Part shown: positions 30,101-56,233 of the stretch, in pieces
How the letters are laid out: each line of letters begins with the position of its first letter
Numbering within the stretch: position 1 is the first letter of the stretch
DNA from: Sphagnum compactum
Taxonomy: Eukaryota
Reading direction: 5' to 3'
Assembly (NCBI GenBank): GCA_965153455.1
Contig: OZ234493.1
Location: 4,960,001 to 5,024,000, forward strand
Length of the DNA: 64,000 nt
Translations under genes and position numbers: made by a program
The notes under the pieces: generated by a model
What the model saw: the letters and a program-made list of their open reading frames with translations, nothing else
The model's database searches: none
Told to the model about the DNA's origin: nothing

Positions 30101-33100
30101 AGCATCGGGGACTATGTTCTCCTTTCCCGGCTTGTGCCGGATGTCCACATTGAACAAGGCCAATGTGTCTTGCCACCTTTGTTGTTTTGATGACAACTTG
30201 GGTTGAGTTGCGAAGTACTTCAAGGTCACATTGTCGGTCCACATCACCACATCTTTGGAGCCTATGTAATGGCCCCAAGTCTTGAGACAATGTATGACCG
30301 CCCACATTTCCTTCTCGTGAGTTGACCACCTTCGCTCCGTCTCACTCAACTTCTTGCTTTCAAAGGCCACCGGTCTTCCATCTTGCACTATGACACCCCC
30401 AATTGCAAAGTCGGAGGCGTCGGAATGGATTTCAAACTCCTTGTCAAAGTCGGGCAACTTCAACACCGGCGCCTTCACCAAAATGCCCTTCAACGTTCCA
30501 AAGGCTTCGTCGCATGCTTCATTCCAATCATAAGTGACGGCGGACTTCTTCAAGAGGTTTGTCAAAGGGGCCGCTATTCTCGCAAAGTTCTTTATGAACT
30601 TGCGATAATAGGAGGCCAATCCTAAAAAGGATCTCAAGGCGGGAACCGAGTTAGGCGGCTCCCAATCCAAAATCGCCTTGACCTTGTGATCATCCATCAT
30701 CAAACCATCTTGAGTTATCCTATGCCCAAGGAAATCCACTTCCGTCACCCCAAATTCGCACTTCTCAAGCTTGGCATACAACTTGTTTTCCCTTAGCCTT
30801 TGGAACACCTTGCGAAGGTGCTCCGCATGCTCCTCCATGGAGCTACTATAAATCAAAATGTCGTCTATGTAGACGACCACAAAATCATCAAGCCATTCGC
30901 GGAAAATGTCATTCATGAGGGTGCAAAATGTTGCGGGTGCATTGGTGAGCCCAAAGGGCATCACCAAGAACTTGTATGACCCATACCTTGTGCGACAAGC
31001 GGTCTTTTCTTCGTCCCCTTCCGCGATCCTTATTTGGTAATATCCCGAACGTAGATCAATTCTACTAAAAACCTTGGCTCCCGAGAGACGATCAAATACA
31101 TCATCGATGCGAGGTAAAGGATAACGATTTTTCACCGTTGCCTTATTGAGTGCTCTATAATCCACACACATCCTCAAAGTCCCATCCTTCTTGTGAACAA
31201 AAAGGACGGGTGCCCCATATGGTGACTTGCTTGGTTTGATGTAACCTTTCGCGAGGAGTTCCTCAAGTTGAACCTTGAGTTCCTTCAACTCCTCGTGGCT
31301 CATTCTATATGGGGCCTTGGCGGGCGGTTACACTCCCGGTATCACTTCAATCGCATGATCAACTCGTCTTCTTGGGGGCAAGTCTTCGGGCAACTCTTCG
31401 GGCATCACATCTGGGAACTCTTGTAAGACTTGCTTTATGCACTTGGCGGAAGTCACCAACTTGGTGGCTCCCTCGGGCTCATATTCGTCCAACACTCGCA
31501 TGACACACATCATGCCGAAACCCCCCACGCATTCTCTTTCCCAAGCTTTTCCTAACATGAAGTGGATGGTTGAACCACCCACACAAGGCAACTCATGTGC
31601 CTTAACTCGTACAATCCCACTTTTAGATGGGATTCTAACCAACCTATTGTGCCCTTCTATGAGCACATTGTTTTGGGTGATGAACTCCATTCCGAGAACG
31701 CAATCCATTCCACCCAAGGTGGAAACCAACAAGTCCACCTTTCCTCTCCAATTTCCCAATTGGAGAGGCACTCCCTTTGCTTGTAGTGTAGTTGGATGGG
31801 GAACCCCATCCGCGAAATGCACCTCAATGGGTGCCTTGAGCTCCTCCAAGTGGAGCTCCATCCTTTCGGCGCTCTCCCGAGTTATGAAGTTGTGGGAGGC
31901 CCCTGTGTCCAAAAGACATAAGATTTCTCGTTTAGCAATCTTCCCTTTCAAGAATATAAGTCGATTGCATTCCGGTTGGGCTAAAGTGGCATTGAGAGCA
32001 AGTACCTTAGAGCTCCCAACCCCCGTTTTGGATTTGGGACAATTTTTGGAGTAATGCCCCACCTCGTTGCAATTGAAACATGCACCCTTAGGCTTTGCTC
32101 CAAAGTTTCCCTTAGTTTGGCTCCCTTTGAAAGGAGCCCCTTTTTTCACAAAGCTACCTTTTGGCTTGAACCCCGAGCCTTGGAATTGTTTTGGCTTATC
32201 CTTGGGTGGGCTACCTTGCCCCCGGTTCCATTCCCCCTCATGCCTTGGCTTTTTGTGAAGGAACTTGTTGTCCTTCTTGAACCCGGATTTGTCGCTCCGC
32301 CCCACATCCGAGAAGTTCTCCATTTTCGTGATGGCCTCGGATAAGGAGGCGGGCCAACTCTCCTCAAGCTTTCGCTTGGCCCAAGTCGGAAGTCCCATCA
32401 CGAATTGGCACACACGATCCAACTCGTGCATGTGCCGGATCTCCAACATGAGTTCGGAATAGGCCCTCACATATTGCCTCAAATTTTCATTCGTGGCATT
32501 CACAAGGTCGCGGAGTTTGCACCTTGAGATGTAGTCGGAGTTTCTCGGAATGAACTCCGCCTCAATGCGATCCTTGAAAAACTCCCACGTATAGCCATGG
32601 TTCTTGCCCTCCTCTTGTCTCACCGTCCGCCACCATGTGGCGGCATAGCCTTTCAAGTAGGATTGGGCAAGCTCCACGGCGGAATTCCGTCCGACCTTGG
32701 TGGCATGGATATAATCATCCATTTCCGCAAGCCAAGCATCCACCACCTTACGGTCTCGGGCACCATCGAAATTCCCGGGCTTGGCCGGTTGAAACCTTTC
32801 GCCTTTGGAGGCCCCCGTTTTGAGGGCCGCCACCAACTCACCAAAGTCGGGCCTATTCATCTTGAGGAGGACTTCAAGTTGCTCCGGGGTGAATAGGACC
32901 GAGCTCCGTTGTTCCTCCTCACTCTCGGGTTCAACCTCGGGCTCATCTTGGTCCTCCCGGAAGTTTGGTTCCTCCCCAATTGATTCCGGCGAGGCTACTA
33001 GGTCATCGACGGGCTCCTCGGACCTAGGCTCTAGGGCTAGCTTCCGGTTCTTCTTGGGTGCCATCCCAAAAATGTCGTTGAGCTTCACCTTGAGCTCTGA

Positions 33101-33928
33101 TACCACGTGACGCGCTCCTTGCTCCCGGGGTGAACCCACTTGAGGGTTCACCAATGTGAAGTTGCGGAAAGTGGGGACCAAAGGGGCACGCTCCCGACTT
33201 CCAACTCTATAAAGGGGTAGAGGGTCGAGTTGGGAGCCCCGGGATTAGACTAGGAAGATGGACTAGTAGATCAAGCACGAATCTGCATCCAAAACCAACC
33301 ACAAATGGGTTAGTTCACATTCGGGAACACCCTTGGGTGTTGGGACAAGCCACGGGCACTTCGGACTACTTGACTCACCACGGCCCGGACTTGGGGGAAG
33401 CCACCACCTTCCCCCTTATAGTCATATCTGCAGCTCACCACGGAGGCTACATCCAAATGGCACATTTTGTTGGGACTCCCGAAATGGAGTCCCGAAATTG
33501 TCCCGACGGGACTCCCGGGACTTTGAACGGTCATAACTCTCGATTCTGAAATCCGATTGCAATGAGGTCTGAACCAAAGTTGTAGCCCTTGTCAAGATCT
33601 TTTCAACGCCATGTCGCACTCCCTGAAGCGACGTCGGGAAAGGGTCGATTCCCGACTTTTAGTGGTCGGGAGTCAAACTGCCAGTTTGACTCCTGGCCCT
33701 TCTTTTGCCTATAACTTGGGCTTCAGATGTCCAAATGACCAATGCGAGGCCATTTTCGATATCTACGTTTTAAGACCTTTCCAATGACACCAAGAGCACT
33801 CCAATGTAAGGTGTTTTGCTCCTTGCTGTTGAGCTCTGAACATTCGGGAGTCCCGGAGGACTCCAAACCTCCAACTTTTGCAAGTGTTGGGCTTCACCCT
33901 CACACTTGGACAAAGTGGGGTTGCGACA
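27197..33928 (-). mobile_element. Full-length chromodomain Ty3/Gypsy (chromovirus, probably Tcn1-like), TSD TGCTT; 5' LTR 33108-33928, 3' LTR 27197-27804 (about 213-bp deletion)
   Basis: PBS TGGTATCAGAGC 33094-33105; PPT AGTGGGGGAGAG 27805-27816; TG...CA LTRs; domain order gag-PR-RT-RH-INT-chromo. Confidence 0.97.
28583..33064 (-). pseudogene. Gypsy Gag-Pol with C-terminal chromodomain; one in-frame TAA at 31328-31330
   Basis: MAPKK start at 33064; CCHC knuckle, LLDTGA, YIDD, DAS, GPY motif, FEVEAVL...[19 protein letters not shown] is in frame. Confidence 0.95.
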
Positions 33929-35758: not shown

Positions 35759-37034
35759 ATATTGAAGCGTTTTCGAATGGAGGAATGTAAGCCCATTCGA
35801 GTTCCATTGGATCCCAAGGTGAAGTTACAAAGGAATGCGAATGGAAATGATGAATCAAAGGGATTTCCATATCAACAAGCGGTTGGGTCTTTGATGTATG
35901 CCATGTTTGCACACGACCCGACTTGGCATACCCCATAAGCATGTTGAGTCAACACATGGCGAAACCCTAACATGGAGCATTGGATGGCCGTCAAACGAAT
36001 CTTTCGATATTTGCAAGGTACATTGCAAATGAAATTACAATTTGGTGCAACACCATCCAAGGAAGTTCTTGGATATTGCGATGCGGATTGGGGTGGTGAT
36101 CTTGAAGATAGGAGGTCCACCACAGGGTTTGTTTTCATGATCGGAGGGGGAGCCATTTCTTGGAGTAGCAAATAACAACCTACAATAACATTGTCCACCA
36201 CGGAAGCCGAATACATGGCGAACACGCAAGCCACAAAAGAAGCCATATGGGTAACAAAATTGATGATGAATTTAGGATACATGGAGGAGAAAAAAATGAT
36301 GGTGATTCGATGTGACAATCAAGGTGCGATATCATTGACCAAGAATCCCACTCACCATGCACGAACAAAACACATTGATGAACAACATCATTTTGTTTGA
36401 GAACGAGTTGAAAATGGAGAAGTTCGATTTCAATATTGTCCAACCGAACACATGGTGGCGGATGTCCTTACGAAGGCATTATCAAAAAAACGACATCATA
36501 AGTTGATAAACATGTTCGGATTAGAAAGTTCATAGAGTGGGAGTGTTAGAAATACTATTCGTTTCTAATTCGCAATGTTGATGAATGTGTTAAACATTCA
36601 TCAAAAGGATGAATAGTATTCACATCCTTGTAGTAGTTAGGTTAGGGTTTAGAAGTGGAGACTACTTAGCGTTTGGCGGCGGCTAGGGTTAGGGTTTGGT
36701 GGCAGCTAGGGTTAGGTGGCGACTAGGGTTAGGGTTTGGTGGCGGCTACGGTTAGGGTTTGGCGACGGCTAGGTTAGGGTTATGTGGCGGTTACTTTAGG
36801 GTTAGGAGATAGTATATAATGGAGTGGTTTTGAGTTGTCTTTCATTCTCTCCTTTCATGGTTTTTGAGTGCACATAGAACCTTCAAGCTTTGTTAGTTGT
36901 TGCAAGCCATAGTTTTGTGATTGTAACATTTGAAGCATACAACCTTTGTAATCTTCTTGTTAGTTAATACAATTGTTCCATTTCATGAACCTTGAAGCTT
37001 TCATTTCTTGTTTGTTTTCAAGTTGTTTCCAATA
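35759..37034 (+). mobile_element. 3' half of a family A element (RT/RH remnant, PPT, 3' LTR 36544-37034), inserted in the repeat tract of another A LTR
   Basis: Starts ATATTGAAGCG (ILKR); frameshifts and stops; stop at 36533-36535. Confidence 0.92.
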
Positions 37035-40000
37035 TTGGCGACGCCTAGGGTTAGGGTTTGGTGGCGGTGGCTATGTTAGGGTTAAGTGGCGGCTACTTTA
37101 GGGTTAGGAGATAGTATATATTGAAGTGGTTTTGAGGAGTCTTTCATTCTCTCCTTTCATGGTTTTTGACTGCACATAGAACCTTCAAGCTTTGTTAGTT
37201 GTTACAAGCCATAGTTTTGTGATTGTAGCATTTGAAGCATACAACCTTTGTAATCTTCTTGTTAGTTAATACAATTGTTCCATTTCATGAACCTTGAATC
37301 TTTCATTTCTTGCTTGTTTTCAAGTTGTTTCCAATAGGTTATGGGCCCACACCAAGCAAAAGAAAGGACATTTTGTTAGAACAAGAAGAAGTAGTGAAAG
37401 GTTTTTGTTAGAAATATTATTCGTTTATAATTCCCAATGTTGATGAATGTGTGAAACATTCATCAAAAGGATGAATAGTATTCACATCCTTATAGTAGTT
37501 AGGTTAAATTAAATAGTGGTAGTTAGGGTTTGGAAGTGGAGACTACTTAGGGCTTCGCGGCGGCTACGGTTAGGGTTTGGTGGTGACTAGGGTTAGGGTT
37601 TAATGGCGGTTATGGTTAGATGGTGGCTAGGTTGGGGTTAAGTGGCGGCTACTTTAGGGTTAGGAGATAGTATATATTGGAGTGGCTTTGAGGAGTCTTT
37701 CATTCTCTCCTTTCATGGTTTTGAGTGCACATAGAACCTTCAAGCTTTGTTAATTATTGCAAGCCATAGTTTTGTGATTGTAGCATTTGAAGCAAACAAA
37801 CTTTGAGATTTTTGTTGGTTAATACAATTGTTCCATTTCATGAACCTTGAATGTTTCATTTCTTGCTTGTTTTCAAGTTGTTTCCAATAGAAACCTGCAC
37901 ATTTTGTGAGAAATTGTTTGAAGAAGAAAAATGATGAAAAAGAAAAAGCTAATCAAGCTTGTGAAGATCACGAGAAAATGTTATTGCCGCATTGAGTGCC
38001 AATGATCATACCACGTATGATTGGATTGTCGATTCCGGTGCAACACAACACATGACATTCGAACAAGAATGGTTTACCACATACTTGCGCATTTCCCCAA
38101 GGAGGGTGTTCATGCGCGATGACACCGTTTTGGAGGCCATTGGCAAGGGGAACATCAAAGCCACAATGCAAATGCGAGGCGACTTTTCACACACAACCAT
38201 GACACAAATTTTTCATGCTCCAAAAATGAAGAATAATCTCATTTCCATGAGTAAACTCATTTTCGAAGGCTTTAAAGTGGAGTTTAACAAGGATGGTTGT
38301 AAGGTCAACGATGCTCGAGGAGTTGTTGTGGCGCACGCACAACAACTTGTACCTTCTTAATGTGAAAGTGCGTAAGGAAATGGCAAACATTGCCAACTCT
38401 TTGGATGAAGATACGATGTTTTGGCATAAAAAACTTGGCCATCTCAACATAGGAAGTCTTAAGGAGTTGGATGCCATTGGATGGCATGAATTTGAAAGAA
38501 GTGCCATTGCATCACATTTGTGAAGGATGCATCCAAGGCAAACATCAAAGAACATCCTTTCCCAAGGACGGAGCGACGAGGGCTTCACAACTTTTGGACA
38601 TTGCGCACACTGATGTGTGCGAGCCAATGAGGACTACATCGCATGGTGAAGCGCGATACTCTCACTTTCATTGACAATTTCTCAAGGAAAACTCATGTTT
38701 ATCTTTTGATGGCAAGGGGAGAAGCGTTTGAAAAATTCAAACAATACAAGGTGTTGGTGGAAAATGAAATTCGTCATAAAATCAAAGTGTTACGATCCCA
38801 CAACAGAGGAGAATTTGTGTCCAGGAGGTTTGACGCATTTCTTGTGGAATGTGGAATTCAACGACAAACAAGTACGCCCTATTCCCCAAGACAAAATGGT
38901 GTTGCGGAACGTGCCAATAGAACCATCATGGAATGTGCAAGAAGCATGATTCTTGCACAAGGGTTGGGAACTTGAATTTTGGGGGGAAGCGGTGAACACG
39001 GTGGTGTACAATCAAAAATCGATGTCCAACCAAAGCTCTTAATTCCAAGACCCTTCAAGAAGCATGGAGTGGTAGGAAACCCGATGTGTCTCATTTGAAA
39101 GTCTTTGGTTGTAAAGCCTTTGCACATGTCCCCGATGAAAAGAGGACCAAATTAGAGTCCAAGTCCATGCCTTGTGTGTTTTTAGGGTATTATGAAGGCA
39201 CGAAAGCATATCGCTTGATGTGTGTAAAAACCAAGAGAATCATCAAAAGTAGAGATGTCGTGTTCATTGAAGGGTCAAAAGAAATAGGTGGTGTGGTCGA
39301 TTCCAAGAAAGTAGAAAATGTAGTTGTGCATGAAATTGGGAACAATGAAGTCGAAGGAGAAGAACCATTGACCTTTAGTGGGGATACACCTTTGAATTGA
39401 ACAAGAATGGAAGGTGTGCAAAGTGAATCCACACCAAGTTGTTCTTCGGAAGAAAAATTTGTTGTTTCTAACGAACCTTCAAAACATGTGTCAAGGGAAA
39501 GACCTCAAACGCAACGAAAGGAATGGCTTCGGGATTGGTGGATTGCTACCAAGGAGGTGGAGCGTGCCACCGTTGCATTTTTGGAGCAGCCCCAAAATAT
39601 TGAAGAAGCATTGACGTGTGAAAATTCCAAGGAGTGGGAGTGCGCAATGCAAGAAGAATATAATTCCCTCATGGCAAACAACACATGGACTTTGGTGCCA
39701 CTTCCCGTTTCTTGCAACTGGATGTTCAAAATCAAACAAGGCGCGAATGGGGAGGTGGAACGCTACAAGGCCAGATTATTGGCAAGGGGTTTTACCCAAA
39801 CCTACGGAGTGGATTACAACAAAACTATTGCGCCCATCGCAAAGTTTACATCTATTCGTTGTATTCTTGCATTGGCGGCCTTGGAAGACATGGAGATCCA
39901 TCAAATGGACGTGAAAACTGCATTTCTCAATGGCGAGCTTGAGGAGGAGATTTACATGGAGCAACCTCAAGCGTTCATGCACCAAGGAGATTAACATCTT

Positions 40001-41614
40001 GTGTGTAAGCTTCACAAATCCTTGTATGGTTTGAAACAATCTCCAAAGGCATGGAATCAAAAGTTAGATGCGTTTCTCAAAAGCATTGAATTTGTGAAGA
40101 GTGACGCCGATCCGAGTGTGTATGTAGCGCAACTGGGAGATGTGAAGTTTTTCATTGTGGTCTATGTGGGTGACCTCATTTTGGTTTGCAACGATCAAAA
40201 CAAACTTTTGCAAATCAAAGAGGAGTTGAGTCAAAAGTTTGAAATGAAGGACCTTGGAAAGTTGCATTTCTTTTTGGGAATGGAGGTGGAAAGGAATCGT
40301 GATGAACGACTCCTACGCATCAACCAAATCAAATACCTCAAGGAAATATTGAAATGTTTTTGAATGGAGCAATGTAAGCCCATTGGAGTTCCATTCGATC
40401 CCAAAGTGAAGTTACAAAGGAATCCCAATGGAAATGATGAATCGAAGGGATTTCCATATCAACAAGCGGTATGGTCCTTGATGTATGCCATGTTGTGCAC
40501 ACGACCTGATTTGGCATACCCAATAAATGTGTTGAGTCAACACATGGCCAACCCTAGCATGGAGCATTGAATGGCCGTCAAACGAATCTTTCGATATTTG
40601 CAAGGTACGTTGCAAATGAAATTACAATTCGGTGCAACACTATCCAAGGAAGTGCTTGGATATTGTGATGCGGATTGGGGTGGTGATCTTGAAGATAGGA
40701 GGTCCACCACAGGGTTTGTTTTCACGATCGGAGGTGGAGCCATTTCTTGGAGTAGCAAACGACAACCTACAATAGCATTGTCCACCACGGAGGCGGAGTA
40801 CATGGCGAACATGCAAGCCACAAAAGAAGCCATATGGATAACTAAAGTGATGATGGATTTAGGATACATGGGGGAGAAGAAAGTGATGGTGATTCGTTGC
40901 GACAATCAAAGTGCGATATCATTGACCAAAAATCCCATTCACCATGCACGAACAAAACACATTGATGTACAACATCATTTTGTTCGAAAACAAGTTGAAA
41001 ACGGAGAAGTTCGATTTGAATATTGTCCAACAAAACAAATGGTGGCGGATCTCCTTACCAAGGCATTATTCAAAGAACGACATCATAAGTTTATAACCAT
41101 GTTCGGATTAGAAACGTCATAGAGTGGGAGTGTTAGAAATACTATTCGTTTCTAATTCGCAATGTTGATGAATGTGTGAAACATTCATCAAATGGATGAA
41201 TAATATTCACATCCTTATAGTAGTTAGGTTAAGTTAAATAGTGGTAGTTAGGGTTTGGAAGTGGAGGCTACTTAGGGCTTGGCGGCGTCTAGGGTTAGGG
41301 TTTGGTGGCGACTAGGGTTAGGGTTTAGTGGCGGCTAGGGTTAGGCGGCGGCTAGGTTAGGGTTAAGTGGCGGTTACTTTGGGGTTAGGAGATAATATAT
41401 ATTGGAGTGGTTTTGAGGAGTTTTTCATTCTTTCCTTTCATGGATTTGAGTGCACATAGAACCTTCAAGCTTTGTTAGTTATTACAAGCCATAGTTTTGT
41501 GATTGTAGCATTTGAAGCATACAACCTTTGTGATTTTTGCTAGTTAATACAATTGTTTCATTTCATGAACCTTGAGTGTTTCATTTCTTGCTTGTTTTCA
41601 AGTTGTTTCCAATA
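37035..41614 (+). mobile_element. Older degenerate family A sequence: partial LTR 37035-37336 + PBS, LTR 37406-37889, pol remnant 37890-41122, 3' LTR 41131-41614
   Basis: Many frameshifts and stops; LTRs of a more diverged subtype. Confidence 0.92.
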
Positions 41615-43674
41615 AAATTTGTTAACATTTTACCTTTGCAATCTAGGTCTCCAGAAATAGGTTTGCCTTTTCCTTTTCTAGTTTATTATTATTATTATTA
41701 TTCTTAGAAATCTTTTCCAATATCCAAGTTTGAAAGAGCTTTTGAAGCAATAAAAAAAATGAGAGAGATTGTATAGAAACATTGAAGAGATATAGTTTTA
41801 GGAAGCCCATAAGAGAGGTAGGTCTTAGTGAGCAAGTGAATCTAATTTTCATTTCAAATTTTAAAGAATAGTTGTAGAAGGATGATTTGCAACAAGAACA
41901 ACAAATGCCATTACATCAAGAGGAGCCTACTTAGGAGCAAATTCCAGAGAGAATCCATATTCCTAACAAGAAGCACACGAAAAGAACAAATTGGCAAGCA
42001 ATGGCTACACATCTGTGTGGGAAAAAAAATGCAAACTCACTAGGATGATGAGATTAGGTATGTTTTTACTCCTATTACAATAGTAATCTGAAGAACATTT
42101 TGCTTTAAAAAAGCTCTAGAGAGGAAGAAAGAGCTTGCGCAAATAAAGCTGAATTAGTAGGTATGTTTGAGTTTGATAGGAATATGCCCTAGCACAGCAT
42201 TTTGGATGAATTTTTGAACAACTAGAAATTGGATCCCAAACATAACAAAATTAAGGTTATGTTGGGGGAGGAGCAGAGAATTGTAAGAAAAATCTATTGG
42301 TAAAACTTTTAAAATTTTGCTATATAGGAAAGACAAAGGCAGATTAAGCAAAGATGTATGATGTTAGAGTAGCATTGGCAGATATAGTTGATAGAATCCC
42401 TACAGTTACAACACCAATAAAAGGTGGGTTGTAAAAAACATGAGGTCAGAATATGCCAATAGAATTGTTGCCATTTTGCCTATTATTTACTAAAGGATAA
42501 GGTGCAGTATTTTAGCAATAAGTTTGCCATGATGAACTCCAGACCAGATCGTGGAAAGTTTGTTAATTGGGCTGCAATTATGTACTTTCAATTGGTCAAA
42601 GAATTGATTAGATGGGAGAAGTATCAAAAAAGTTGATTGAGGGAACAACCAAAAGAGAACAAAAAAAGGATGTATGCCATTTTACCATAATCCTAGAAGT
42701 TATGTTTCAAAAGTGGTTTCCATTAGAAGGTGTAGAGCCACAAGAGAAGAAGAAACATGTAGAGCAACCATAAGAGGACAAAAAAAGAAGAGATAGTCTA
42801 AGGGAGAGGTTCACTAAAAATAAAAGACTTCTAAACCATACACACATATCTCCTAAAAAGGAGAAACAACTAGAGACTAGGACAACCAAAAGAGCAGTTT
42901 TGATGTCTCAATCTAATGATGATGAGGAGAGAGAAACTCTGCATAAGAGGCAGAGAAGACAAGAGGATATTACAATGAAGGGCAATATTAATCCTCAACA
43001 AACAATAGAATTACTGAATAAACAATAGTAACAAAATCGGAGGCAAAAGGAGAAATCCATATTTCCTAAATTTGATCCAAGACCATCAATCTTTCCCAAG
43101 CAAGAGTAGAGATCAAATGGACAAGAATAGAGATTAGATGCACAAGAGCATCATAAATGGCAAAAAGGAGCTAGAATTTCAAGCTCAACAATCAATAAAG
43201 GAGCAAATACATGATTTTGACCTAGATCCACCAGAAGTGTAACAATTTGTTCCATCACCACATAATAATGAAGGATATTGCCTTTAAGACCAAGTTCTAC
43301 AACAGGTTCAAATGTATTTGGAGAAATTTGGACTGCACATAGGAGTGTAGGTTCATTAGGTACAAGTTCCAGAGGTCAGGTTTCTAAGTTTCATACACCA
43401 AGGTCTGTGCAAGGGAAGAAGTAGAATTGGATGAGCACAGGAGAGCTGTTAGTATGTTTCAACAGGCAGCAGAGTACAATGTATAGATGATAAATATTTT
43501 GCTTAAACTTTCTGATCTAGAGATAAAAAATAAGCAAATCGTAAAGGAGAAGGATAAATCTATCTTGAACTTGTAGGGGGCTCTAGAGAAGGAGCAAAAG
43601 CTCAAAGTAGAGTTGTAGGATAGGAACAGTGAGAATAATCAAGTATTGGCAGATTTCTAAGAAGTTATATTTTT

Positions 43675-44096
43675 TATTGGAAACAACTTGAAAACAAGCA
43701 AGAAATGAAACACTCAAGGTTCATAAAATGGAGCAATTGTATTAACTAACAAAAATCATAAAGGTTGTATGCTTCAAATACTACAATCACAAAACTATGG
43801 CTTGCAACAATTAACAAGGCTTGAAGGTTTTATGTGCACTTAAAACCATGAAAGGAGAGAATGAAAGACTACTCAAAAACACTCCAATATATACTATCTC
43901 CTAACCCTAAAATAGCCGCCACTTAACCCTAACCCTAGCTGCCGCCAAGCCCTAAGTAACCTCCACTTCCAAACCCTAACCACCATTATTTAACTTAGCC
44001 TAACTACTATAAGGATGTGAATACTATTCGTCCTTTTGATGAATGTTTCACACATTCATCAACATTGGGAATTAGAAACAAATAATATTTCTAACA
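43675..44096 (-). mobile_element. Family A solo LTR, imperfect TSD TTTTT/CTTTT
   Basis: TATTGG...CTAACA; outermost family A copy. Confidence 0.92.
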
Positions 44097-44574
44097 CTTT
44101 TATCAATAACATGGAGAAGTAGAATAAGGATCTAAATAACATCATAATAGAAAGGGATTCCTTGCAAGTAACTCTAAAGAGACATATGTTGATTATTGGA
44201 ACTTAAAGGTAGATAAGGATATTCTAAGTGTAAAACATAGCAAACTTCAAAAAGATTACAAGAATATGGAACAAACTCTTTTAAAGCAACATAAGGAGTT
44301 GGAAGAGCTCAAAATGGACAATAAAAATGCATATCAAGCCAAGAATGAGGTACAAAAGCAATTTGATTAAAGGCATGCATAGATGGCAAAATTTGTAAAA
44401 GTAGAAGGCCTTTAAGGAGAAGTTGCAAAAACCTCTAAAAAAGACTCAGAAGGTAAAGCCCTTCAATTAAGATAGTGTTTTTAGAGAGAATAATGTATTC
44501 AAGAAGCAAAATATTTTATTTCAGGGGAAACTCAAAGCATTGTTAATGGAGGAAAAATATGCAGATATGTGGTG

Positions 44575-45423
44575 TGTCGCAACTCTAGCCTTGGGCTCGC
44601 GACCAAGGCAAGGGCTTGCAAAGGTGCGAGCCAAGAGTGAGCCCGAGAGTCACATTTCATGTTCCCGGGAGTGCAAGAGAATGTGAGGGAATGAACCCCC
44701 ACACTCCCAAGTGAACTCCCACTTTGGGAGTTGGAGTTCTAATGGACTCCTGAGTTTTCAGAGGGCAGTTGCAGGGGTCCAGACTCATTGGATTGAGAAG
44801 TTCCTTATATCATTGGAAAGCTCTTGGAACTTATATGTCTGAAATGGGCTCGCATGACCCATTTGGGTACTTAAAACACAAGTTATGGCCAAAAGAGGGG
44901 TCGGGAGTCTGGCAATTTGACTCCTGACGACTAAAAGTCAAGACTTGCCCCGATTTCCTTGCATGAAGGTGGCGTGCCACATACCATTGACAAGCTCTCA
45001 ACGAGGGCTACAACTTTGCTTTAGACCTAAGCTTAATTAGAGGTCTACACACAAAGGTATGGGCCTCCAAAGTCGTGGGAGTCCCAAATTTGGGAATTTC
45101 AAGACTCCCACTTGGGAGTCCTGAGACAAAATGACATTTGGGTGCGGGTCCCATGACCAGGCATAGAGAATACTATAAGGGGGAAGGTGGTGGCTTCCCC
45201 CAAGTTCGGGCCGTGGTGATTATGAGTCCGTGTTTGCCTATGGCTCGTCCGTGCACCAAAAGTGCTCCAGCTATGCACTAACCAACTTGTTGTTTGGTTT
45301 ATGTAAGTCCGTGTGAGTAATTGACTTGCTTATCACTCTTCCTAGTCTTCATCTCCTCATCCTTCTGCTGTTTTCACATTTAGACTCGTAGTTGAGTCTA
45401 CCAAGGAGTTTTGGGGTGCATCA
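44575..45423 (+). mobile_element. Gypsy solo LTR (related to the 23223 family), TSD TGGTG
   Basis: TGTCGCAAC...GCATCA; shares the ATAAGGGGGAAGGTGGTGGCTTCCCCCAAGT block. Confidence 0.93.
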
Positions 45424-45597
45424 TGGTGGGAAGCAATCCAGGACATTGTTTAGAAAGATATTAAAAAGGTTTGTAGAAGGTATGAGAGAAATGGAAGGCT
45501 ATATAGACACAAAAAAATTTAGATGGAAAAAATCATGCCATCATTTGAGTATTAGCCTTTAGTTTTGTCTCTAGAACTAGAAATTTCAAATGAAAAA

Positions 45598-46372
45598 TGT
45601 CGCAACCCTAGCATTGGGCTTGCGACCAAGGCAAGGGCTTGCAAGGATGTGAGCCAAAACTGAAGCCCGAGAGTCACATTTCATGCTCCCGGGAGTGTAG
45701 GAGTGTGAGGGAATGAACCCCCACATCCCAAGTGAGCTCCCACTTTGGGAGTTGGAGTGTTGATGGACTCCCGAATCTTCAGAAAGTAATTTCAGGGGTC
45801 AAAACTCATTGGATTGAAGAGTTATTTATATCATTGGAAACATTTTGAAACGTAGATTTTTAAAATGGGCTCACATGAACCATTTGAGTGATTGAAACAC
45901 AAGTTATAGCCAAAAGAAGGGCCAAGAGTCAAACTGCCAATTGATTCTCGACCACTAAAAGTTGCAAATTACCTCGATTTATTTGTGTTCAAGTGACGTG
46001 TCACATATTGTTGGAAAGCTTTCGACAAGGGCTGCAACGTTTCTTTAAACCTCATCTCAATCGAAGGTCTATAGAAGAAGTTATGGGCCCCCAAAGTCAA
46101 AGGAGTCCCAATTTCAGGAATTTCGGGACTCCCAACTTGAAAGTCCCGGGACAAAATGATATTTGGGTGTTGGCCCCGTGGCCAGGCACAAAGAATACTA
46201 TAAGGGGGAAGGTGGTGGCTTCCCCCAAGTTTGGGTCGTGACGAGTCTTGTGAGTTTATGTTTGCCCGTGGCTCGTTTGTGCACCAAAAGTGCTCCAACT
46301 ATGCACTAACTGACTTATTGTTTGGTTTGTGTAGGTTAGTGTGAATATTTGACGCACTTGTCAGTCTTCCTA
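45598..46372 (+). mobile_element. Gypsy LTR, 3'-truncated, same family as 44575-45423
   Basis: TGTCGCAACCC start; colinear with 44575-45343, then similarity stops. Confidence 0.88.
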
Positions 46373-48103
46373 AAAGGGAGGTTGTTGGTAAGACAAATAC
46401 ATCATAATAGAATTTAAAACAAGTAAAATCTCTTTTGCAAAAAGTCCATTATCAGGAGTATGCTTCTGTAGCCACAAAAATAGAAGAGCAGGTACAACCT
46501 AAAAAACACATAACTTAAGATATTCAACATAATTAGATTGAACTTGTATTAGAGTTGCAACAGCAATAGCAGATTCAGATCACATCAAATATAGAGTCGT
46601 AACAACAGCCACAAATGACACCAGAATTGTAACAACAAGAGGAAAGGACAAACAATCATCAAACAATTACATAGTTATTAACATAAGCATCAAAAAAACA
46701 ACAACAGACTGAACAATAGCCATAGATAGAGCACATTGTAATACATGCAGACCCTATTGTAGTATAGACAAATTTTTTCTTTTGAATCATAAGATTAGAA
46801 ACAACATTAAATTTAGCTTTCTTAACACATTTTCCATCCAAAATTTCGAGATGTAATTCAAAATATGGGTGGGGTAATGTTAAGGGTATAGTTATTATAG
46901 TTATTTATGGTAATAATTAGTTAGTATATTTCTACTTACCTAAGTTATTGTTTTAGGAAATACTAGCTAGATCACATAATTTTTATTACCATTTAAATTT
47001 GAAAAGAACATAAGACTATTTTTGTTGATAAATATTTATGGCCAAGAGAAGATGAGGATCCATTATATCATTGTAGAACATGAAGCTTTGAAGGAGTATG
47101 AGAGAATAACACTTTGATTTTTGGAAAAAACTTTATTTCCATAGCTATAATTGATGTTTTGAATGTTTTTATCATACTTTCATTGCTAGATTTTAATTTT
47201 GAAACTAGATTTGAATAGATTTGAATGAACATATTTATCTAGTATTAGTTTTAGGATGCAACGCAATCCAATAAGCCAAAAAGGGTGTCGAAGAGTAAAG
47301 AAAATAGTCGAAATTTGATAAATATGTATGTTTTACCATTTAAAGCCATGATAATCATGGCAAGTTATTGTTTTTTCATTCATTTGAATATTAAGGAATT
47401 CAAACCAAAAATCCATTTGATGAAATTTTAAGTTTTAAGTTTTGATTTAAGACCTCAAAAAGTGTACATGAATGTGTCAGACATGAGTCGATTTTGCAAA
47501 AGACTATAAAAAAGACTCATATAATAAATCACATTTGATGGGAAAAATTTAAGAAAATAAAGACCCGTTAACCACGTTAAAAAAACACTCATACCCTAAG
47601 ATATGTGGAATTGTAAAACTTTAAAAATTCAAAGAACTTTCCAAAATTAATCTAGAATTTTAGAATTTCAAAAGTCCTTTGCCACACATAAATGGGATAA
47701 ATGTACATGATGTGTTAAGAAAAGTTGTAGTTTATCATATCAAAAAACATAAAAAGGTTCAAAAAAATAAATAGTTATGATTTGAAATTATTATCATTTT
47801 TAAAAATGAAACACTACATTTATAAGGAATTAGGACATTTTTAGAAATCTATATGTATTAAAAAATGATGAAGAAAATAAATGTCATGTACTTGGACAAC
47901 CATATGCATTTATTATAACAAGTTGCAAAAACAATTATTCCAAAATTCATTCATATGAAAGAAAAATTTTGGCAAAAAAGACATGTAATCCTTTTTTCCA
48001 GTAATCTCGTTCACTTGTTGGCTCATTGTATCCCATTCTCACCCTTTATTGTATTTCAGTCTAGATTTTAGACCAAAATATAGGATTAAAAATTCTGTAT
48101 TTA

Positions 48104-51100
48104 TTGTTGTTTAAACGACTATGGAGGTTTTTAAAAGTCAATTGTGTTGAAACAATTGAATTGGATTCTAAGTGCATCCCATCCATACAGGTTCTTGGAA
48201 ACAACGCATGTGAAGACCTGTTTGATCCACAAGATCATAGGGTTACAAACATTGGGAGTGAACCCCTTGAAATGGCGGAAAATATTGTTATCAAAGGAGA
48301 AGTTCTATTCATATTGATACAACGAATGGAAAAGGTGAAGAAATGGTATAATGTGCCACAAGAGGTCTTAGCGGACGCTTCATACCAGGTGAAATTATAT
48401 GTTCCTTTCATTAGTATTTTTGTCAATGGTTGGAATAGATGGATGGGTTTTGTAACTAATCGTGGAAATATGCTCACAACACTCAATGAAAAAAAACATT
48501 AACGAGTGGTGCAAAAAGCGGGTGATGTCAAAGAATTGAGAGGAGATGATCATGAAGAAAGGGGTGGAGAATTTGGAAAAGTAAGAGGAAAAGGAGTTCG
48601 GAAAGATTCGTTCGAAGTACAAAAATAGAGTTGGGAAGCTTTTGCCAATTGTCAATCTGTCCAGCAGATAAGAGTTCTTCAATATTTTGAAGGAGAATTT
48701 TGTGCAATGGAGCTAAAATGGACAATTGATAAGTTGTCTTGTTTCATACACACAAAGGTGAGTGCCAAAGAGAGAGTGAGTTATTTGAAGGTCTGGATCA
48801 AGGATGACATGGAGAAATCAGCACATGGATTCCCATTGAAGCTTACGGGGAACACATCATTGGACCCATGGCTTTCAAAGAAAGCATTCATATTTTAGTG
48901 AGTGATGTAAACATTACTTTTGAATTGTGTTTGGAAATGAAATGGGTTTGTAAGTAAAGAGTTATAGCATTGTTGAATGCAACTCTTACAAGCATGCAAG
49001 GACAAGGTCGAGGAGCTAGAGAGCGACCATCAAGAACACATGCGAGTAATATATGAGAAGCCAAAGTTCAGGGAGGGATGGGTGGCAATAAACTCATACG
49101 TGTCAAATACACAACGAAATAATTTTCAAGAATATTTTTGCATGAATTCAACTTGGACAATTTGAAGAAAGGCACAAAAATTTTCTGTTTAGCACTTGGG
49201 AAGAGCAACTATACAACTCATGATTCTCCAATGATGCTTGTTTCAATGAGTACAAACAACACAACTTTGTATGTGAGCACCCAAAAAAAGTAACAAAGTT
49301 TAAACATGGAGAATTTGGTATGGCAAGTACATGAAATTAATTTTAATTGCAGAGGGGTTCATTACCAAACATCGTTCTTTGGGGCGAATTGCAACTAAAG
49401 GGATAGAGTACCAAACATTTATGATCGAGGGGATGGTATTATATTTATTGGTCACTGAAGTCCCAGAGGAGGAGAAAGAATTGTATGAATCCTATAAACA
49501 GGAGGAAGAAAACTCACTCATAGGGGCACCAAGTCAAGAGGTGGATGCAGATGTAGTGGAAGAGATATCATGAGCATCGAAAAACATCCTTGTCAACTCG
49601 ATTCTGACCGCAAACAAAGGGAGAAGACAATTGAAACCATGCCCATGTGCACAATGGAATGCATCGAATTTCATTGCATTTGGCATTGCAAACAGAACCC
49701 AATCGGACTATCTTGCATGAAAAATTTTACAAGCGCAAATGGAAGGATCATGGAAAAGCCCCGGACACGATGAAAAGGTGACATTGAAACAAGCACAAGG
49801 TATATCAAAGAAACAGAGACACATGGCAAGGTACTCCATTGTCATAAATATGAGTAGAGTGGTAGAAAAGAAAGATGTGTTTCTAATCCCATAGTCATGG
49901 CTAGGAACTTATATGGCATACTTATAGAACAAAAAATGCCAGAGACTTGGGGATTGCAAGCATATCATCAATTTGTGAGGCAAGTGAAAAGAACATCAAC
50001 ATAATTATAATTTGGATTGTTTTGAACCCGCAACCCATGAACTAACAAATGATTTTTGTCCAAATGTAGCTGCATTGTCGAAATTTATTAGGGGGAAAGG
50101 GCAAGGAGGAGATTGCACATTTTGACCTCGTTATCATTGACATCCCAGATGGATAAATGGTTCATGGCCTACCGGTAGAATCCATTCCATCATGGAACAC
50201 AAGAGCAATGTCGGATTAGTTTGTTGTAGTAGCATCTGTAGTGAACCTATGGGGGTGTGACGACATGAGAGTCTTGTTCATGTTCTCTCGTGACCATGAG
50301 CTTCAAAAGAAGATGCAAAGACACATGAAAGGAACACCATTCAACAAGGAATTCAAACATTGGACAATCATGAATTCAGTTCTTTTCTATCTGCCAAAAG
50401 CACTAGTAAGGAACACTATTCCGGAGAATAATAACAAATCTGAATAAATCCATTGTATATTCATACCAATGATTGTTTTTTGGATGTAGACATTGTTATT
50501 TTAAGTTATCTGTTGGACATAGCCAAGGCGGGGATTCAAGTTGATGGACAATTTGATGGCATACATTGACCCAAACATCGATCTTATAGATCTTGATGTC
50601 CTTTATGATGTGGTCATGGATAAAACATTCAAAAAGGGGAAAACAAGGTGTGCCATGGAGGGGTGGGAAGGAGAAAGCCCTTGTGTTGATGTAAGAACTT
50701 GTTGAATGTTGCAGCCCACAAGGAGGAAGGGTGTTAGACTTGACAGCAAGAATAGGTATGGCCAATGAAGGTCAAATGCATTATATTTGAATTGTACCAA
50801 TGGTACCTAATCTTGTGTGATGTTCATATGTGATTCTCACATTTTTTTATATCTGATTAATGTAGGTGCATGTATTCTCACTCCCTCGGTAACGAGAAGG
50901 TTAATTGTGGATGGGAGGAATAAATAACTATTCATGATTCACTTTTGGATGCAATGTTTTCGGTGAAGGCAAGGCCATTCGTCGACCAAATAGGTTTGGA
51001 GAAGCATACCACAATAGTTGATGAAGAGGAGGACAACGAGGACACTATCCCATTGACTAATATAAACATTTACGACCAAGGAGTATCAACAAGTCACAAT

Positions 51101-51839: not shown

Positions 51840-53192
51840 GTGTTTGGCTAACTGGTGTACGTAACCATGAGATATAAAGGACAAATAGGCTTGAAATGGG
51901 TGTGTGGCTACTCCCATTCAAAATACACCTATGTTGACGTAAACATTTGGGAAACTAACGTAAGATCCTGCCAGATGGGAAGGACAGATAGGCTAGAAAT
52001 GGGTGTGGCGCTACACCCATTCGACTTACGCCTATGTTGACGTAGACATTTGGGAAACTTGCATAGTTACCCATAGGACGGGAGGGACTGATAGGCTTGA
52101 AATGGGTGTGTAGCTACTCCCATTTGCGATATAGCTACGTTGACGTAGACATTTGGGAAACTGGCATAGTTACCCATAGGACGGGAGGGATTGATAGGCT
52201 TGAAATGGGTGTGTAGCTACTCCCATTTGCGATATAGCTATGTTGACGTAGACATTTGGGAAACTGTCATAGGTAACAACAAGATATATGGGACAAATAG
52301 GCATGAAATGATAGTGTAGCTACTCACATTTGAAATACACCTACGTTGACATAGACATTTTGGGAAATTGGCATAAGTACCCACGAGATAGGAGGGACTG
52401 ATAGGCTTGAAATGGGTGTGTAGCTACTCCCATTTGAGATACACCTATGTCGACATCGACATTTGGGAAATTAGCATAAGTAACCACGAGATATAAAGGA
52501 TTGATAGGCTTGAAAAATGTTAGTGTAGCCATTTCCATTCGAAATACACCTACGTCAATGTAGACATTTGGGAAACTAGCATAGGTACCCACAAGATGGG
52601 AGGGATTGATAGGCTTGAAATGGGTGTGTAGCTACTCCCATTTGAGATATTATGTTGACATAGACATTTGGGAAACTCATGTAAGTAACCATGAGATATA
52701 AGGGACAAATGGGCTTTAGAAATGTTTGTGTAGCTACTCCCATTCAATATACACCGATGTCAACATAAACATTTGAGAAACTGGCATAGGTACCCACGAG
52801 ACGGGAGGGACTAATAGGCTTGAAATGGGTGTGTAGCTACTCCCATTTGAAATACACCTATGTCGATGTAGACGTTTGGGAAATTGGTGTAGGTAACCAC
52901 GAGATATAAAGGATGGATAGGCTTGAAATGTTAATGCAGCTACTCCCATTCGAGATACACCTATGTCGACATAGACATTTGGAAAATTGGCGTAGGTACC
53001 CTTTAGACAAGAAGGATGGATAGGCTTGAAATGGGTGCGTAGCAACTCCCATTCGAGATACCCCTACATTGACAAAGACATTTGGGAAGTTGGAGTAGGT
53101 ACCCACTAGGTGGGAGGAGTGGACACACTTTAAATGGGTGTGCATCTACTCCCATTCGAAATACACCTAGATCGATGTAGACGTTTGGGAAA
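51840..53192. repeat. Tandem array of about 13 x 103-bp units with two largely alternating variants
   Basis: GACATTTGGGAAA anchor (with variants) at 52045, 52148, 52251, 52354, 52458, 52563, 52663, 52768, 52871, 52974, 53077, 53180. Confidence 0.95.
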
Positions 53193-53746
53193 CATATAGT
53201 GAGCACATGGGAACCACTTGGGAACAAAATAGGAATTTCATTGGAACATGGGACACGGAAACTAGACATCTGAACCTTTTTAAAATTTGTAATCTTCTAG
53301 TTTGGAAGATTATACAACAAATGTTCTATCCTGAGAGATTATGGAGCATAATCTTCTTGCCTAGAAGATTGCAAACTGTCATCCAAGTGACATATGGCAG
53401 GTTGAAAAGCACCAACATTACCCAGCATACTAGGTTTTTGGAACCAAAAAGTGGCATAATCATTCACCGTGGATGTTCACCTAAAGGTTTATATATAATT
53501 TGTATATTTGCAAGTGGTTTTGGCACACACCGTCCTCCTATGGCAACACCTAAGGAGTCAGGACACATGCCCCATGCCTGCAAATTGACCCTGAATCATA
53601 ATTTGTCTAAACTGATGAGAACAAATTGTTAGGCCCAAACTAATTTGACGGGGCATCCTTGGTCTATGCCCCTTGCAAAAAGTATACAATGTGTAGTCCC
53701 AAGAGCTAAGCGGCTCTCATGACAAGTTGGCTTGTTCACAAATAAG

Positions 53747-56233
53747 CAGGCCTCTATATATATGGAAATCTATTAATAGAATTCGTAAGTTCCGTATTTC
53801 ATTTTCGTAGGGTGCTGGTTTTTAACGGTATCAAAAAAAATCTATGTTTCATTTTCGTAGGGTGTTGTTTTTTAACGGTATAAAAAAAAAACTTTATTTC
53901 AATTTTGAAAGTCCGTGGCGCATTTTCGGATCACCAAACGATGTTCCCTTGCCATTTACTGCATTCTTGCTCGATCGATGGAGACCTCTGAGCTTGCTCC
54001 GAAGCGTCCCTGCAAAGCTGGAGCTCGCAAGACGCCCTTCAAGACGAAACACGCCATACAATATGGACTTTCCATTACAGCCCGCGACCCGATGTCTTCT
54101 GAAGTTGTTGTTGTCTGCTGCCAATTTTGCATATGCTTTGGTCGCGAAGGCTCTTCTAAAAATCGTTGACGATTTGGACGTTTGAAGGACCTCCATTTCG
54201 AACCGATAATTACACGCAGCACCTTCACCTGAATCACAAAACTCGATGGGAAGAATACCAAGGGTTGGCACATCAGGAGAAATCAAAATATTTCGACGTC
54301 GTTGTCAAGCACGATATGCCATTACATCGAGCCCCGATCTGAAGCTATCACATTGACCGTCAGCAACAGCATCGTTGATGTTGTGATTGGCGACATGCTC
54401 TGGCATCCAACTGACATGGAAGGGCAAACACGTGAAAACGCATTGTCTCTTTTTAAACGGAAAGAAGACGGTAGCTATTTCGTAGAGATCACCAAGTCAA
54501 AGCAATTCTTGCTAGCGACACGTTATGTTAGACGTGGAATGTCGTTTGCCATGGCTGCAGATGCAATTCATGATGCAAAAGAGGTTTGCGACATTCCAAA
54601 GCTCGGCGCTTGCAGCGATTACTTGGTTGCTTCCTACGCCAGAGTTGCATGTGCCCTTTCGATTGAACACATTTCGCAAGTTCTATGCAGCAAATGGGAA
54701 TTTTCAGTGGCGTTTGACACGTCAACCGACCTTCAGCAAACCTCTTGGGTTGATGTTCGCATTCGATACTATCAAAACTCTACTCTGGAAAACTTTCATC
54801 TGATTACTCTCCCATTTGCTGGGCAGCACACTGGCTTGGCCACGTTCGAGATGTTTGAGAAACTGTTTGACGCTGTCTGTCCTTTATGGAAAGACAAGTT
54901 GATTGGTTGCTCTACGAACGGGGCAGCAAATATGATTGGGCGTCTTTCTGGAGTTGTGACACGGATCCAAAACGTTGTGAAGCCAAACTTCATGCGAGTG
55001 TGGTGTCTGTTGCATCAAATAGACATCACTATGCAGAAGGTTTACAAGCGAGTAGGTTGTAACTTTTACAAGATGCTTACCTCCATTATTTCGTTCTTGA
55101 GGCGCCAGAAGAACGTCGTTGAGGAAATGCAAGCCATCTGTCCGAACCTTTCAGCCACTCGGTGGGCTTCTATGTCGCGCGTTGCTTGATTTCTGGTTGA
55201 GAAGCGATCGGAAATTGTAACATACTTTGCTAAAACGGAACCATCCGATCGTTTTGACCAGCTTCCAACTCTTGCTTTCTGGATCTTGATCTCTGTCATT
55301 AGCGAGATCTCAACGCACATTAGTGAGTGCGTCGAGAGCTTGCAAGGCCGGCGGGTGACTTTACAGCAGCAAACGGCTGCCGTTCAATCACTGCTGGATT
55401 CTTTATAGCGTTTTGCTTTCGTGGAACTCACTCCCAATGATGACACTTTACCGGCCATGCAGGACGTCGTCGTTATTGGGGAGAGGCAGGTCAGTTACGC
55501 TGACCTAAGGGGATTCATTCAAGATCAGGGCATCTTCGCCAACCAAATTCTTGATGCACTAGAGCCAGAAGAATGCACTGAAGTTCTGGATGCCGTTGGC
55601 GAAATCCTTCTGTCGATCGTCAACGGGTTGAGCTCAGTCAAGGCTTTGCGCGACGAAGTGAACGACGCCAGTACTGATGGCATGCCTCCTTGCTTGCCGC
55701 ACGAACTGCTAGCGTTGAAACCACGCGACGTCGTTCAGTTAGTCCTGAAATTCCACGATCGACTATCGGTTTCCTTGACTTAGAATTCCATTGATTTGAT
55801 TGTGGATCAGCACAAGAAGCTTCTGAATGCCGTCAGCAAGGAGCCAAGGATCCAAACTGCCTCGGCTCGTCACAGTGAGCAGACAGACTTTAGCGACGCT
55901 TGGAAGACCCCATCCATTAAGGACCGGTTTCCTGAGCTGATGGAGTTCTGTGGGGGCTTGGCTTCTCCTTTCCCCAACACGGCCACCGTTGAAAGCGATT
56001 TCTCAGTTTTGAAATGGGAAAAGGATCTACACTGATCGAATATTACTCCTTTTTCACTTGAAGGGATCTTATACTGCTGTCAGATTCGCTCTTTGCTGAA
56101 GAATTAACAATGAAAGCCAATGATAGAAGAGATTTCTGAATAAATTTCGTATATTCCGTATTTTATTTCTGTAGCGCGCCGTATTTTATTGAAAAACAGA
56201 ACATAGGGATTGTTCCGAAGATAGAGAGGCCTG
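53747..56233 (+). mobile_element. hAT DNA transposon, TIR CAGGCCTCT(A/C)TAT, 8-bp TSD CAAATAAG
   Basis: TSD at 53739-53746 and 56234-56241; transposase inside. Confidence 0.95.
53978..56107 (+). pseudogene. Intronless hAT transposase pseudogene
   Basis: CQFC...H..H zinc finger, SVAFDTSTD, STNGAANM, WCLLH, TRW, PNTATVESDFS; frameshifts near 54165 and 54320; stops at 55187, 55406, 55781, 56033. Confidence 0.9.

Follow-up and report, generated by a model that had tools for sequence, protein, structure and literature searches.

A probable pseudogene of an intron-bearing family in Sphagnum compactum, with probable kinship to permuted amino-methyltransferases

To our knowledge, few eukaryotic genes descend from the beta-class amino-methyltransferases: N4CMT of bdelloids, DN4MT1 of Marchantia, and the MT-A70 family. 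Proteins of the MT-A70 family (PF05063; METTL3, METTL14, and METTL4 types) are eukaryotic and derive from permuted beta-type methyltransferases, and some of them are inactive, with a degenerate motif IV. DN4MT1 (preprint) and bdelloid N4CMT (PMC8885841) are reported to cluster clearly with prokaryotic N4-methylcytosine (4mC) enzymes, and the text on bdelloid 4mC contains the term PF01555. Methyltransferase domains of the Dam type are described as sitting in intron-free open reading frames (ORFs) of retrotransposons, with the catalytic pocket kept (10.64898/2026.05.21.726589). We analyzed a 64,000-nucleotide stretch of the Sphagnum compactum genome (contig OZ234493.1, positions 4,960,001–5,024,000, forward strand), hereafter called the window, in which an initial annotation had proposed a dead, spliced, and probably transposon-borne gene for a beta-class-like methyltransferase near 50 kb on the + strand. 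The segment 50070–51035 (+) is probably a pseudogene copy of an intron-containing eukaryotic gene family. We put at about 0.7 the probability that this family is a diverged homologue of the beta-class S-adenosylmethionine (SAM)-dependent amino-methyltransferases of the N6_N4_Mtase type, in which the order of motifs is permuted so that motif IV precedes motif I.

A decayed gene and its intron-bearing family

The + strand of the locus was read again, and the frames, GT–AG introns, listed stop codons, both frameshifts, and the CTAAC sequence of the initial annotation were all found in place. The features of the unit are as follows, with asterisks standing for stop codons.

48104–49857, + strand: upstream low-copy region, decayed open-frame remnants, part of the duplicated unit
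49858–49966, + strand: possible upstream exon, uncertain, with an open frame (..NLYGILIEQKMPETWGLQAYHQF) and no methyltransferase signal
49967–50069, + strand: intron with GT..AG ends and CTAAC at 50042–50046
50070–50405, + strand: exon 1, with a motif IV-like FDLVIIDIPDG, SWN, a beta5-like VLFMF, and F.KEF..W...N
50406–50489, + strand: intron 1 (GTAAGG..TGTAG), phase 0, its position kept in distant relatives
50490–50755, + strand: exon 2, starting with TLLF and having a variable middle followed by a motif X-I-like KEKALVLM*ELVECCSPQGGRVLDLTARI
50756–50865, + strand: intron 2 (GTATGG..TGTAG), phase 1
50866–51035, + strand: exon 3, motif II-like by eye only; similarity to the paralogous contig L129 stops near 51035

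Exon 1, in frame 0 from 50070, reads LHCRNLLGGKGKEEIAHFDLVIIDIPDG, a TAA stop (50154–50156), MVHGLPVESIPSWNTRAMSD, a TAG stop (50217–50219), and then FVVV...WGCDDMRVLFMF...HWTIMNSVLFYLPKAL up to 50405. The reading of exon 2 is GVPWRGGKEKALVLM, a TAA stop (50692–50694), and ELVECCSPQGGRVLDLTARI, ending at 50755. This reading needs a change of frame near 50640, where there is one extra A in the run 50631–50635, and it also passes through two in-frame stops that had not been listed in the initial annotation (TAA at 50502–50504 and TAG at 50520–50522). Exon 3 reads ..ACILTPSVTRRLI (..RRLI), a 1-nucleotide deletion after 50905, WEE, a TAA stop (50921–50923), and ITIHDSLLDAMFSVKARPF.. (ITIHDS...). 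Upstream of exon 1, P0004 and P0012, two ORFs from the databases, read through the frame at 49858–49966 and the intron following it.

Two paralogous contigs, L128 and L129, came from scanning metagenomes with P0012. The first matches the window at 47700–48074 and 48078–50650 with 82–84% identity; a gypsy-like long terminal repeat (LTR) insertion lies between the two blocks, and another such insertion ends the match at 50650. The second matches the window at 48934–50772 (78%) and 50773–51033 (79%), and has an ~880-bp gypsy-LTR-like insertion in intron 2. The pseudogene unit itself begins upstream of exon 1, near 48.1 kb. This upstream region is 84% identical to L128 from 4280 onward, and 48065–48898 comprises 278 codons in one frame with only two stops. 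No recognizable domain was found at 48.1–50.0 kb by a Pfam scan of the + frames or by a PDB sequence search with the 48065–48898 frame.

The paralogs make it possible to tell old lesions from recent ones. Both frameshifts are private 1-nucleotide lesions of the window copy, as they are absent from the paralogs covering each site: the run at 50631–50635 has five A in the window versus four in L128 and L129, and L129, being one base longer than the window at the site in exon 3, remains in a single frame throughout that exon, with one TGA. The TAA following DIPDG is TAT (Y) in both L128 and L129, and where the window has TAG following MSD, L129 has TGG (W). All three copies have the stop after ..CWT, and the TAA within ..LVLM*ELVE is common to the window and L129, which are the sole two copies covering that site. 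Identity between the window and L129 is 79% in exon 1, 90% and 81% in its flanking introns, and 83% in exon 2. For the 49967–50069 intron, identity to the paralogs is 88–90%, a conservation that is not below that of the exons. Substitutions in exon 1 number 33, 19, and 18 at codon positions 1, 2, and 3, respectively (50 transitions, 20 transversions). Because stops are shared and exons are no better kept than introns, the three copies are DNA-level duplicates, since drifting neutrally, of a gene with at least two stops already in place. The proposal of a dead copy in the window is supported, and this copy itself does nothing.

The protein family was defined from exon 1, with which the large protein libraries were searched; for exons 2 and 3 and for the region upstream, the comparison covers L128 and L129. 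A phmmer search of 1.84 billion representatives with the exon 1 read-through (P0001) returned eight proteins at E≤1e-3, six of which are true relatives (P0005, E = 7e-23; P0006, 1.8e-14; P0004, 1.4e-12; P0007, 9e-8; P0009, 5.7e-4; and P0010, 5.8e-4). The other two, P0008 and P0011, were set aside on reading as repetitive proteins. All six relatives are short, single-exon ORFs of 65–151 amino acids, labelled "hypothetical protein" or left without a name. Conserved among them are DL.I.DIPD, SWN, a hydrophobic strand, D.EL.KK, and F.KEF..W...N, and the exon is uninterrupted in P0009 and in the P0010/P0014 cluster.

Five sequences (P0001, P0007, P0009, P0010, and P0013) continue into V-R/K/C at one and the same alignment position. 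This is the signature of a GTR/GTN donor that has been read through, and relatives with as little as ~28–33% identity therefore still keep the intron that follows exon 1. An intron position common to such distant relatives substantiates the proposal of an intron-bearing family. The motif IV-like tetrapeptide is DIPD in the window and P0009, QIPD in P0010, DFPN in L129 (P0005), and DILD or DVLD in decayed copies. DIPD had been put forward as an atypical catalytic motif; its recurrence across relatives (as DIPD, QIPD, and DFPN) marks it as a trait kept in the family and not as a lesion or a private oddity of the window copy. Exon 1 is a real coding exon of a genuine protein family. No intact full-length relative was found by phmmer and word-index searches, the word-index search for longer proteins being weak evidence, and nothing was returned when metagenomes were scanned with P0014 or viral contigs with P0014 and P0009.

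Probable relationship to beta-class methyltransferases

The reference for the beta class consisted of 52 sequences, combining a subsample of 80 loci resembling YhdJ with matches to PF01555 found in 46 genomes, and has the consensus DPPY ... W.K ... HPtqKPeaLl..VLDPFaGSGTT..R.fIGiE. Aligned to this reference by hhalign, the exon 1 family occupied template columns 77–140 (score 28.3, P 0.002, probability 14%). FDLVIIDIPDG was paired with vDLIfaDPPYn, and the helix and strand that follow fell on the region of motif V. A score of 28.3 was not attained by any of 200 column shuffles or 200 block shuffles (maxima 22.8 and 21.0), and scores in the hhalign controls were 15.9 for the reversed query, 16.2 for the reversed template, 15.6 for copia pol, and 19.5 for gypsy pol. 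The contiguous 38-amino acid piece of exon 2 (50641–50754) also scored 28.3 (P 1e-4, probability 58%), and was aligned without gaps over 26 columns (248–273) to tqKPeaLleriI..s..gdiVLDPF. Random read-through chunks of the window did not reach this score in any of 444 cases (maximum 19.7, 99th percentile 16.7). With L129 included, the exon 2 piece scored 28.7, and 0 of 100 shuffles were as high.

The joined multi-exon reading is colinear with template columns 44–288 (P 3.7e-4, probability 36%). The permuted order of motifs, IV-like before X-I-like, which had been read by eye, is thereby borne out by the profile–profile alignments of exons 1 and 2. Separated by 250 bp of one strand, two segments fall on both halves of the template in the correct order and each well beyond its null, which favors beta-class-like descent. 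Under such descent, the family would adopt a class I methyltransferase fold in which the motif IV–VIII half comes ahead of the motif X-I half. An intact ancestral protein would have bound SAM through the VLD..G loop, and its target may have been an amino group, exocyclic or other. As DIPD takes the place of (D/N/S)PP(Y/F/W), the ancestor may have had an altered substrate or have been a non-catalytic pseudoenzyme.

A number of observations weigh against this relationship. Curated libraries were silent: Pfam yielded no family, either at E≤10 (three pieces of the window and all eight family members) or at E≤1 (the three + frames of 47–53 kb and the frames of both paralogous contigs). Scans of NCBIfam and PHROGs gave chance-level rows only, and no methyltransferase came up when PDB sequences were searched with the profile of exon 1. 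The initial annotation had likened the gene to the N6_N4_Mtase type, but the Pfam scans produced no match to PF01555 at any threshold tried, leaving the gene outside that family by score; the resemblance to PF01555 is one of architecture and does not amount to membership as the family is defined. Against our own beta-class hidden Markov model (HMM), hmmsearch scores were 4.6 bits for the joined window reading, −2.9 for exon 1, and 8.2 for the exon 2 piece. This piece came first among 6384 read-through chunks of the window, but by only 7.0 versus 6.4 bits. A chunk of L128 (6483–6662) that is out of frame behind a 10-nucleotide deletion scored 9.0 bits, above the exon 2 piece (7.0–8.2 bits), and read-through HMM scores below 10 bits are therefore noise.

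The profile–profile results also have their limits. The hhalign probabilities are only 14–58%, and the frames had originally been picked by the same motifs, so that the tests are not fully blind. Exon 3 by itself scored 10.6, with 50 of 100 shuffles as high, and joining it to exon 2 gave 32.0, a gain of only ~3 score units. The motif II claimed for this exon (R..IG.E) can be seen by eye as RRLI/V.CG.EE, but since half of the shuffles match the exon 3 score and the exon carries no independent signal, this reading is unsupported. Motif IV is without the second proline and without the aromatic residue of (D/N/S)PP(Y/F/W/H). In the region of motif I after VLD, which is available from two decayed copies only, the window has VLDLTARIG and L129 has VLDLKA*IG, and neither copy shows G.G.

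The poor quality of the predicted models also counts on that side. The AlphaFold2 model of window exon 1 had a mean predicted local distance difference test score (pLDDT) of 45.9, at which a Foldseek search is meaningless, and that of P0014 had a pLDDT of 55.1. No Foldseek match to the P0014 model was obtained at E≤1e-3, and its VIA-align Z scores of 5.5–6.9 are below the noise level stated for the tool. On the favorable side, the P0014 model has the order helix, strand, loop, helix, strand, helix, and two strands, which matches the succession of beta4 to beta7. Foldseek listed 42 rows, of which 28 have the methyltransferase fold according to their titles (including the beta-class M1.HpyAVI), and ~32 of the 50 VIA-align rows are methyltransferases by name; we gave these titles no weight. 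In the ESM Atlas, P0014 has SAM methyltransferases as feature neighbors (0.86–0.88), among them clusters of PF01555 and Eco57I. The feature neighbors of P0009 include UPF0020, MTS, and PF01555 clusters. The Atlas model of P0009 matches clusters of tRNA N6-methyladenosine-37 (m6A37) methyltransferases with a template modeling score of 0.62–0.67 by query. Each of these Atlas results was taken as a lead only, and the low-confidence fold matches only lean towards methyltransferases.

A more far-reaching form of the beta-class reading can be framed. In it, the window holds the remains of a eukaryotic family, so far undescribed, of homologues of permuted amino-methyltransferases with D-I-P-D for DPPY, which is old enough for its introns to be conserved, has intact members in other organisms, acts on a new substrate or provides non-catalytic SAM- or nucleic-acid-binding partners, and lies outside every current family model. 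We hold this extended form to be doubtful.

Less likely again is a family that is real but unrelated to methyltransferases, with some other alpha/beta fold, in which the DIPD and VLD pieces are chance likenesses within a decayed gene. It is consistent with the silence of all curated HMM libraries, with the noise-level scores against our own HMM, with the low confidence of both predicted folds, and with the absence of key catalytic residues. It sits poorly, however, with two segments that beat all of their nulls (0 of 400, 0 of 100, and 0 of 444) and do so in the correct order on one template, and with the Atlas neighbors of two distant members, which are methyltransferases. We therefore consider an unrelated fold unlikely and favor beta-class-like descent.

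Copy number, carrier, and genomic setting

The depth of DNA contigs is flat at ~48–50 across 48.1–51.8 kb, like that of unique flanks. Depth is in the thousands over the repeat at 47.2–48.0 kb; this high-copy repeat stops at ~48103, where depth drops to ~48. In the sister species, a single contig spans 49639–51800 with 51 differences and five gaps, and since it runs past the end of the paralog similarity, the locus is orthologous between the two species. No RNA reads were placed on 48.1–51.8 kb even at 80% likeness, in one polyA run of which ~12% was read; all 16 placed RNA reads fall on the 47.2–48.0 kb repeat.

The initial annotation regarded the gene as transposon-borne, and we considered the possibility that it was the passenger of a DNA transposon, intact elements of which would constitute a mobile system for 4mC or N6-methyladenine (6mA) elsewhere. 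There are at least three DNA-level copies with introns, as well as further decayed fragments in databases, and two + strand ORFs lie downstream (54233–55189, 318 amino acids, at a distance of 3.3 kb; and 55409–55783, 124 amino acids). Judging by eye from ..D.STD.., ..NGAANM.., and ..CLLHQ.., we take these ORFs to be hAT-transposase-like. They have no Pfam match, and a PDB sequence search with the 54233–55189 ORF was empty. Several results weigh against a passenger. A repeat search of the window found no terminal inverted or direct repeats bracketing the unit, self-comparison found no second copy of it within the window, and depth stays at the level of the low-copy flanks. The hAT-like ORFs of 54.2–55.8 kb are present in neither L128 nor L129, and the locus is orthologous in the sister species. 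Two stops are already shared, so the copies spread after the death of the gene. The boundaries of all three known copies are broken by LTR insertions, and a Pfam scan of the + strand of 47–59 kb found no reverse transcriptase, RNase H, or recombinase domains. With no terminal repeats, a low copy number, and hAT-like ORFs missing from the paralogs, we judge such a transposon passenger unlikely, and slightly less likely still than an unrelated fold. The interpretation given in the initial annotation is thus supported for the dead copy, the intron-bearing family, DIPD, and the permuted order; a PF01555 match, a signal of motif II, a transposon hallmark, and an intact relative did not emerge from the analysis.

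The window as a whole is repeat-rich, plant-type DNA, and 0–41 kb is packed with nested Ty1/copia and Ty3/gypsy polyprotein ORFs. At least six fragments of copia-type polyprotein ORFs, in both orientations, are found at 1–22700 and 36000–41100; several are near-identical, which suggests recent nested insertions or duplications. A repeat of ~820 bp occurs at 23221–24042 and 33108–33928, resembling an LTR pair around gypsy pol/gag ORFs (28583–33244, − strand). Two more copies of it lie in tandem at 44575–45355 and 45595–46373, with a spacing of ~1024 bp, and three further insertions of this repeat in L128 and L129 interrupt the methyltransferase-like unit. Between these copies, 41129–44098 is made up of long inverted repeats (arms 41129–41617 and 43672–44098, 92% complementary) that hold TTAGGG/TTTAGGG-like telomere-type repeats, located at 41.3 kb; this is possibly a foldback-type element. 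At 47229–48044, an element of ~816 bp is inserted in another repeat; elsewhere in the genome there are copies that lack the element and have 47228 joined to 48045. Directly downstream of the pseudogene unit is a tandem satellite (51843–53277) with a 103-bp unit, ~12.7 copies, ~78% matches, and higher-order periods of 206 and 413 bp.

Comparison with known systems

If beta-class-like descent holds, an intron-bearing family with an altered catalytic loop would add a lineage to the history of eukaryotic 6mA and 4mC enzymes. The family goes undetected by current profile libraries, and it could represent either an enzyme acting on a new substrate or a new pseudoenzyme. Since the window copy is dead, its value lies in the family profile, which can serve for finding intact members.

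Descent from another class is the weakest of the alternatives: exon 1 could be the second half of an unpermuted RNA or protein methyltransferase of gamma type (TrmN6, MTS, UPF0020), with the X-I-like piece a coincidence, as might fit the Atlas structure and feature neighbors of P0009 (mostly tRNA m6A37, MTS, and UPF0020 rather than PF01555) and an exon 3 without signal, but this is improbable given that no motif I-like piece was found upstream (48.2–50.0 kb on the + strand has none of the window's 30 best chunks, and Pfam is silent there too) and that the piece downstream outscores all other chunks of the window and is far over the natural null in hhalign. As for MT-A70, neither the window pieces nor the family members have a Pfam match to it. 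In hhalign, scores against a bacterial MT-A70 alignment were 14–16, this being a weak profile of only three sequences, which the beta-class profile matched at 43.4.

A DIPD family with introns is not described in the available portions of the literature found, which include the DN4MT1 preprint, PMC8885841, PMC12344493, and 10.64898/2026.05.21.726589. The Dam-like enzymes of DIRS and LTR retrotransposons resemble the window gene in being repeat-associated amino-methyltransferase domains in eukaryotes. They differ from it in that the window gene has the reverse order of motifs, has GT–AG introns, and has no reverse transcriptase or recombinase nearby. Marchantia DN4MT1 and bdelloid N4CMT are likewise eukaryotic genes of beta-class descent; compared with them, the window family is far more diverged and has a non-canonical motif IV.

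The closest likeness is to the beta-class enzymes of PF01555 themselves, such as E. coli YhdJ. The window family differs from these in scoring below the Pfam thresholds, in having DIPD for DPPY or SPPY, and in showing no motif I glycines, and the window gene differs in being split by introns and residing in a plant-like genome. Common to both, in this order, are a motif IV-like strand and loop, a helix–strand pair with W.K/N, and a variable middle that is followed by the K(P)..L...L.....VLD block.

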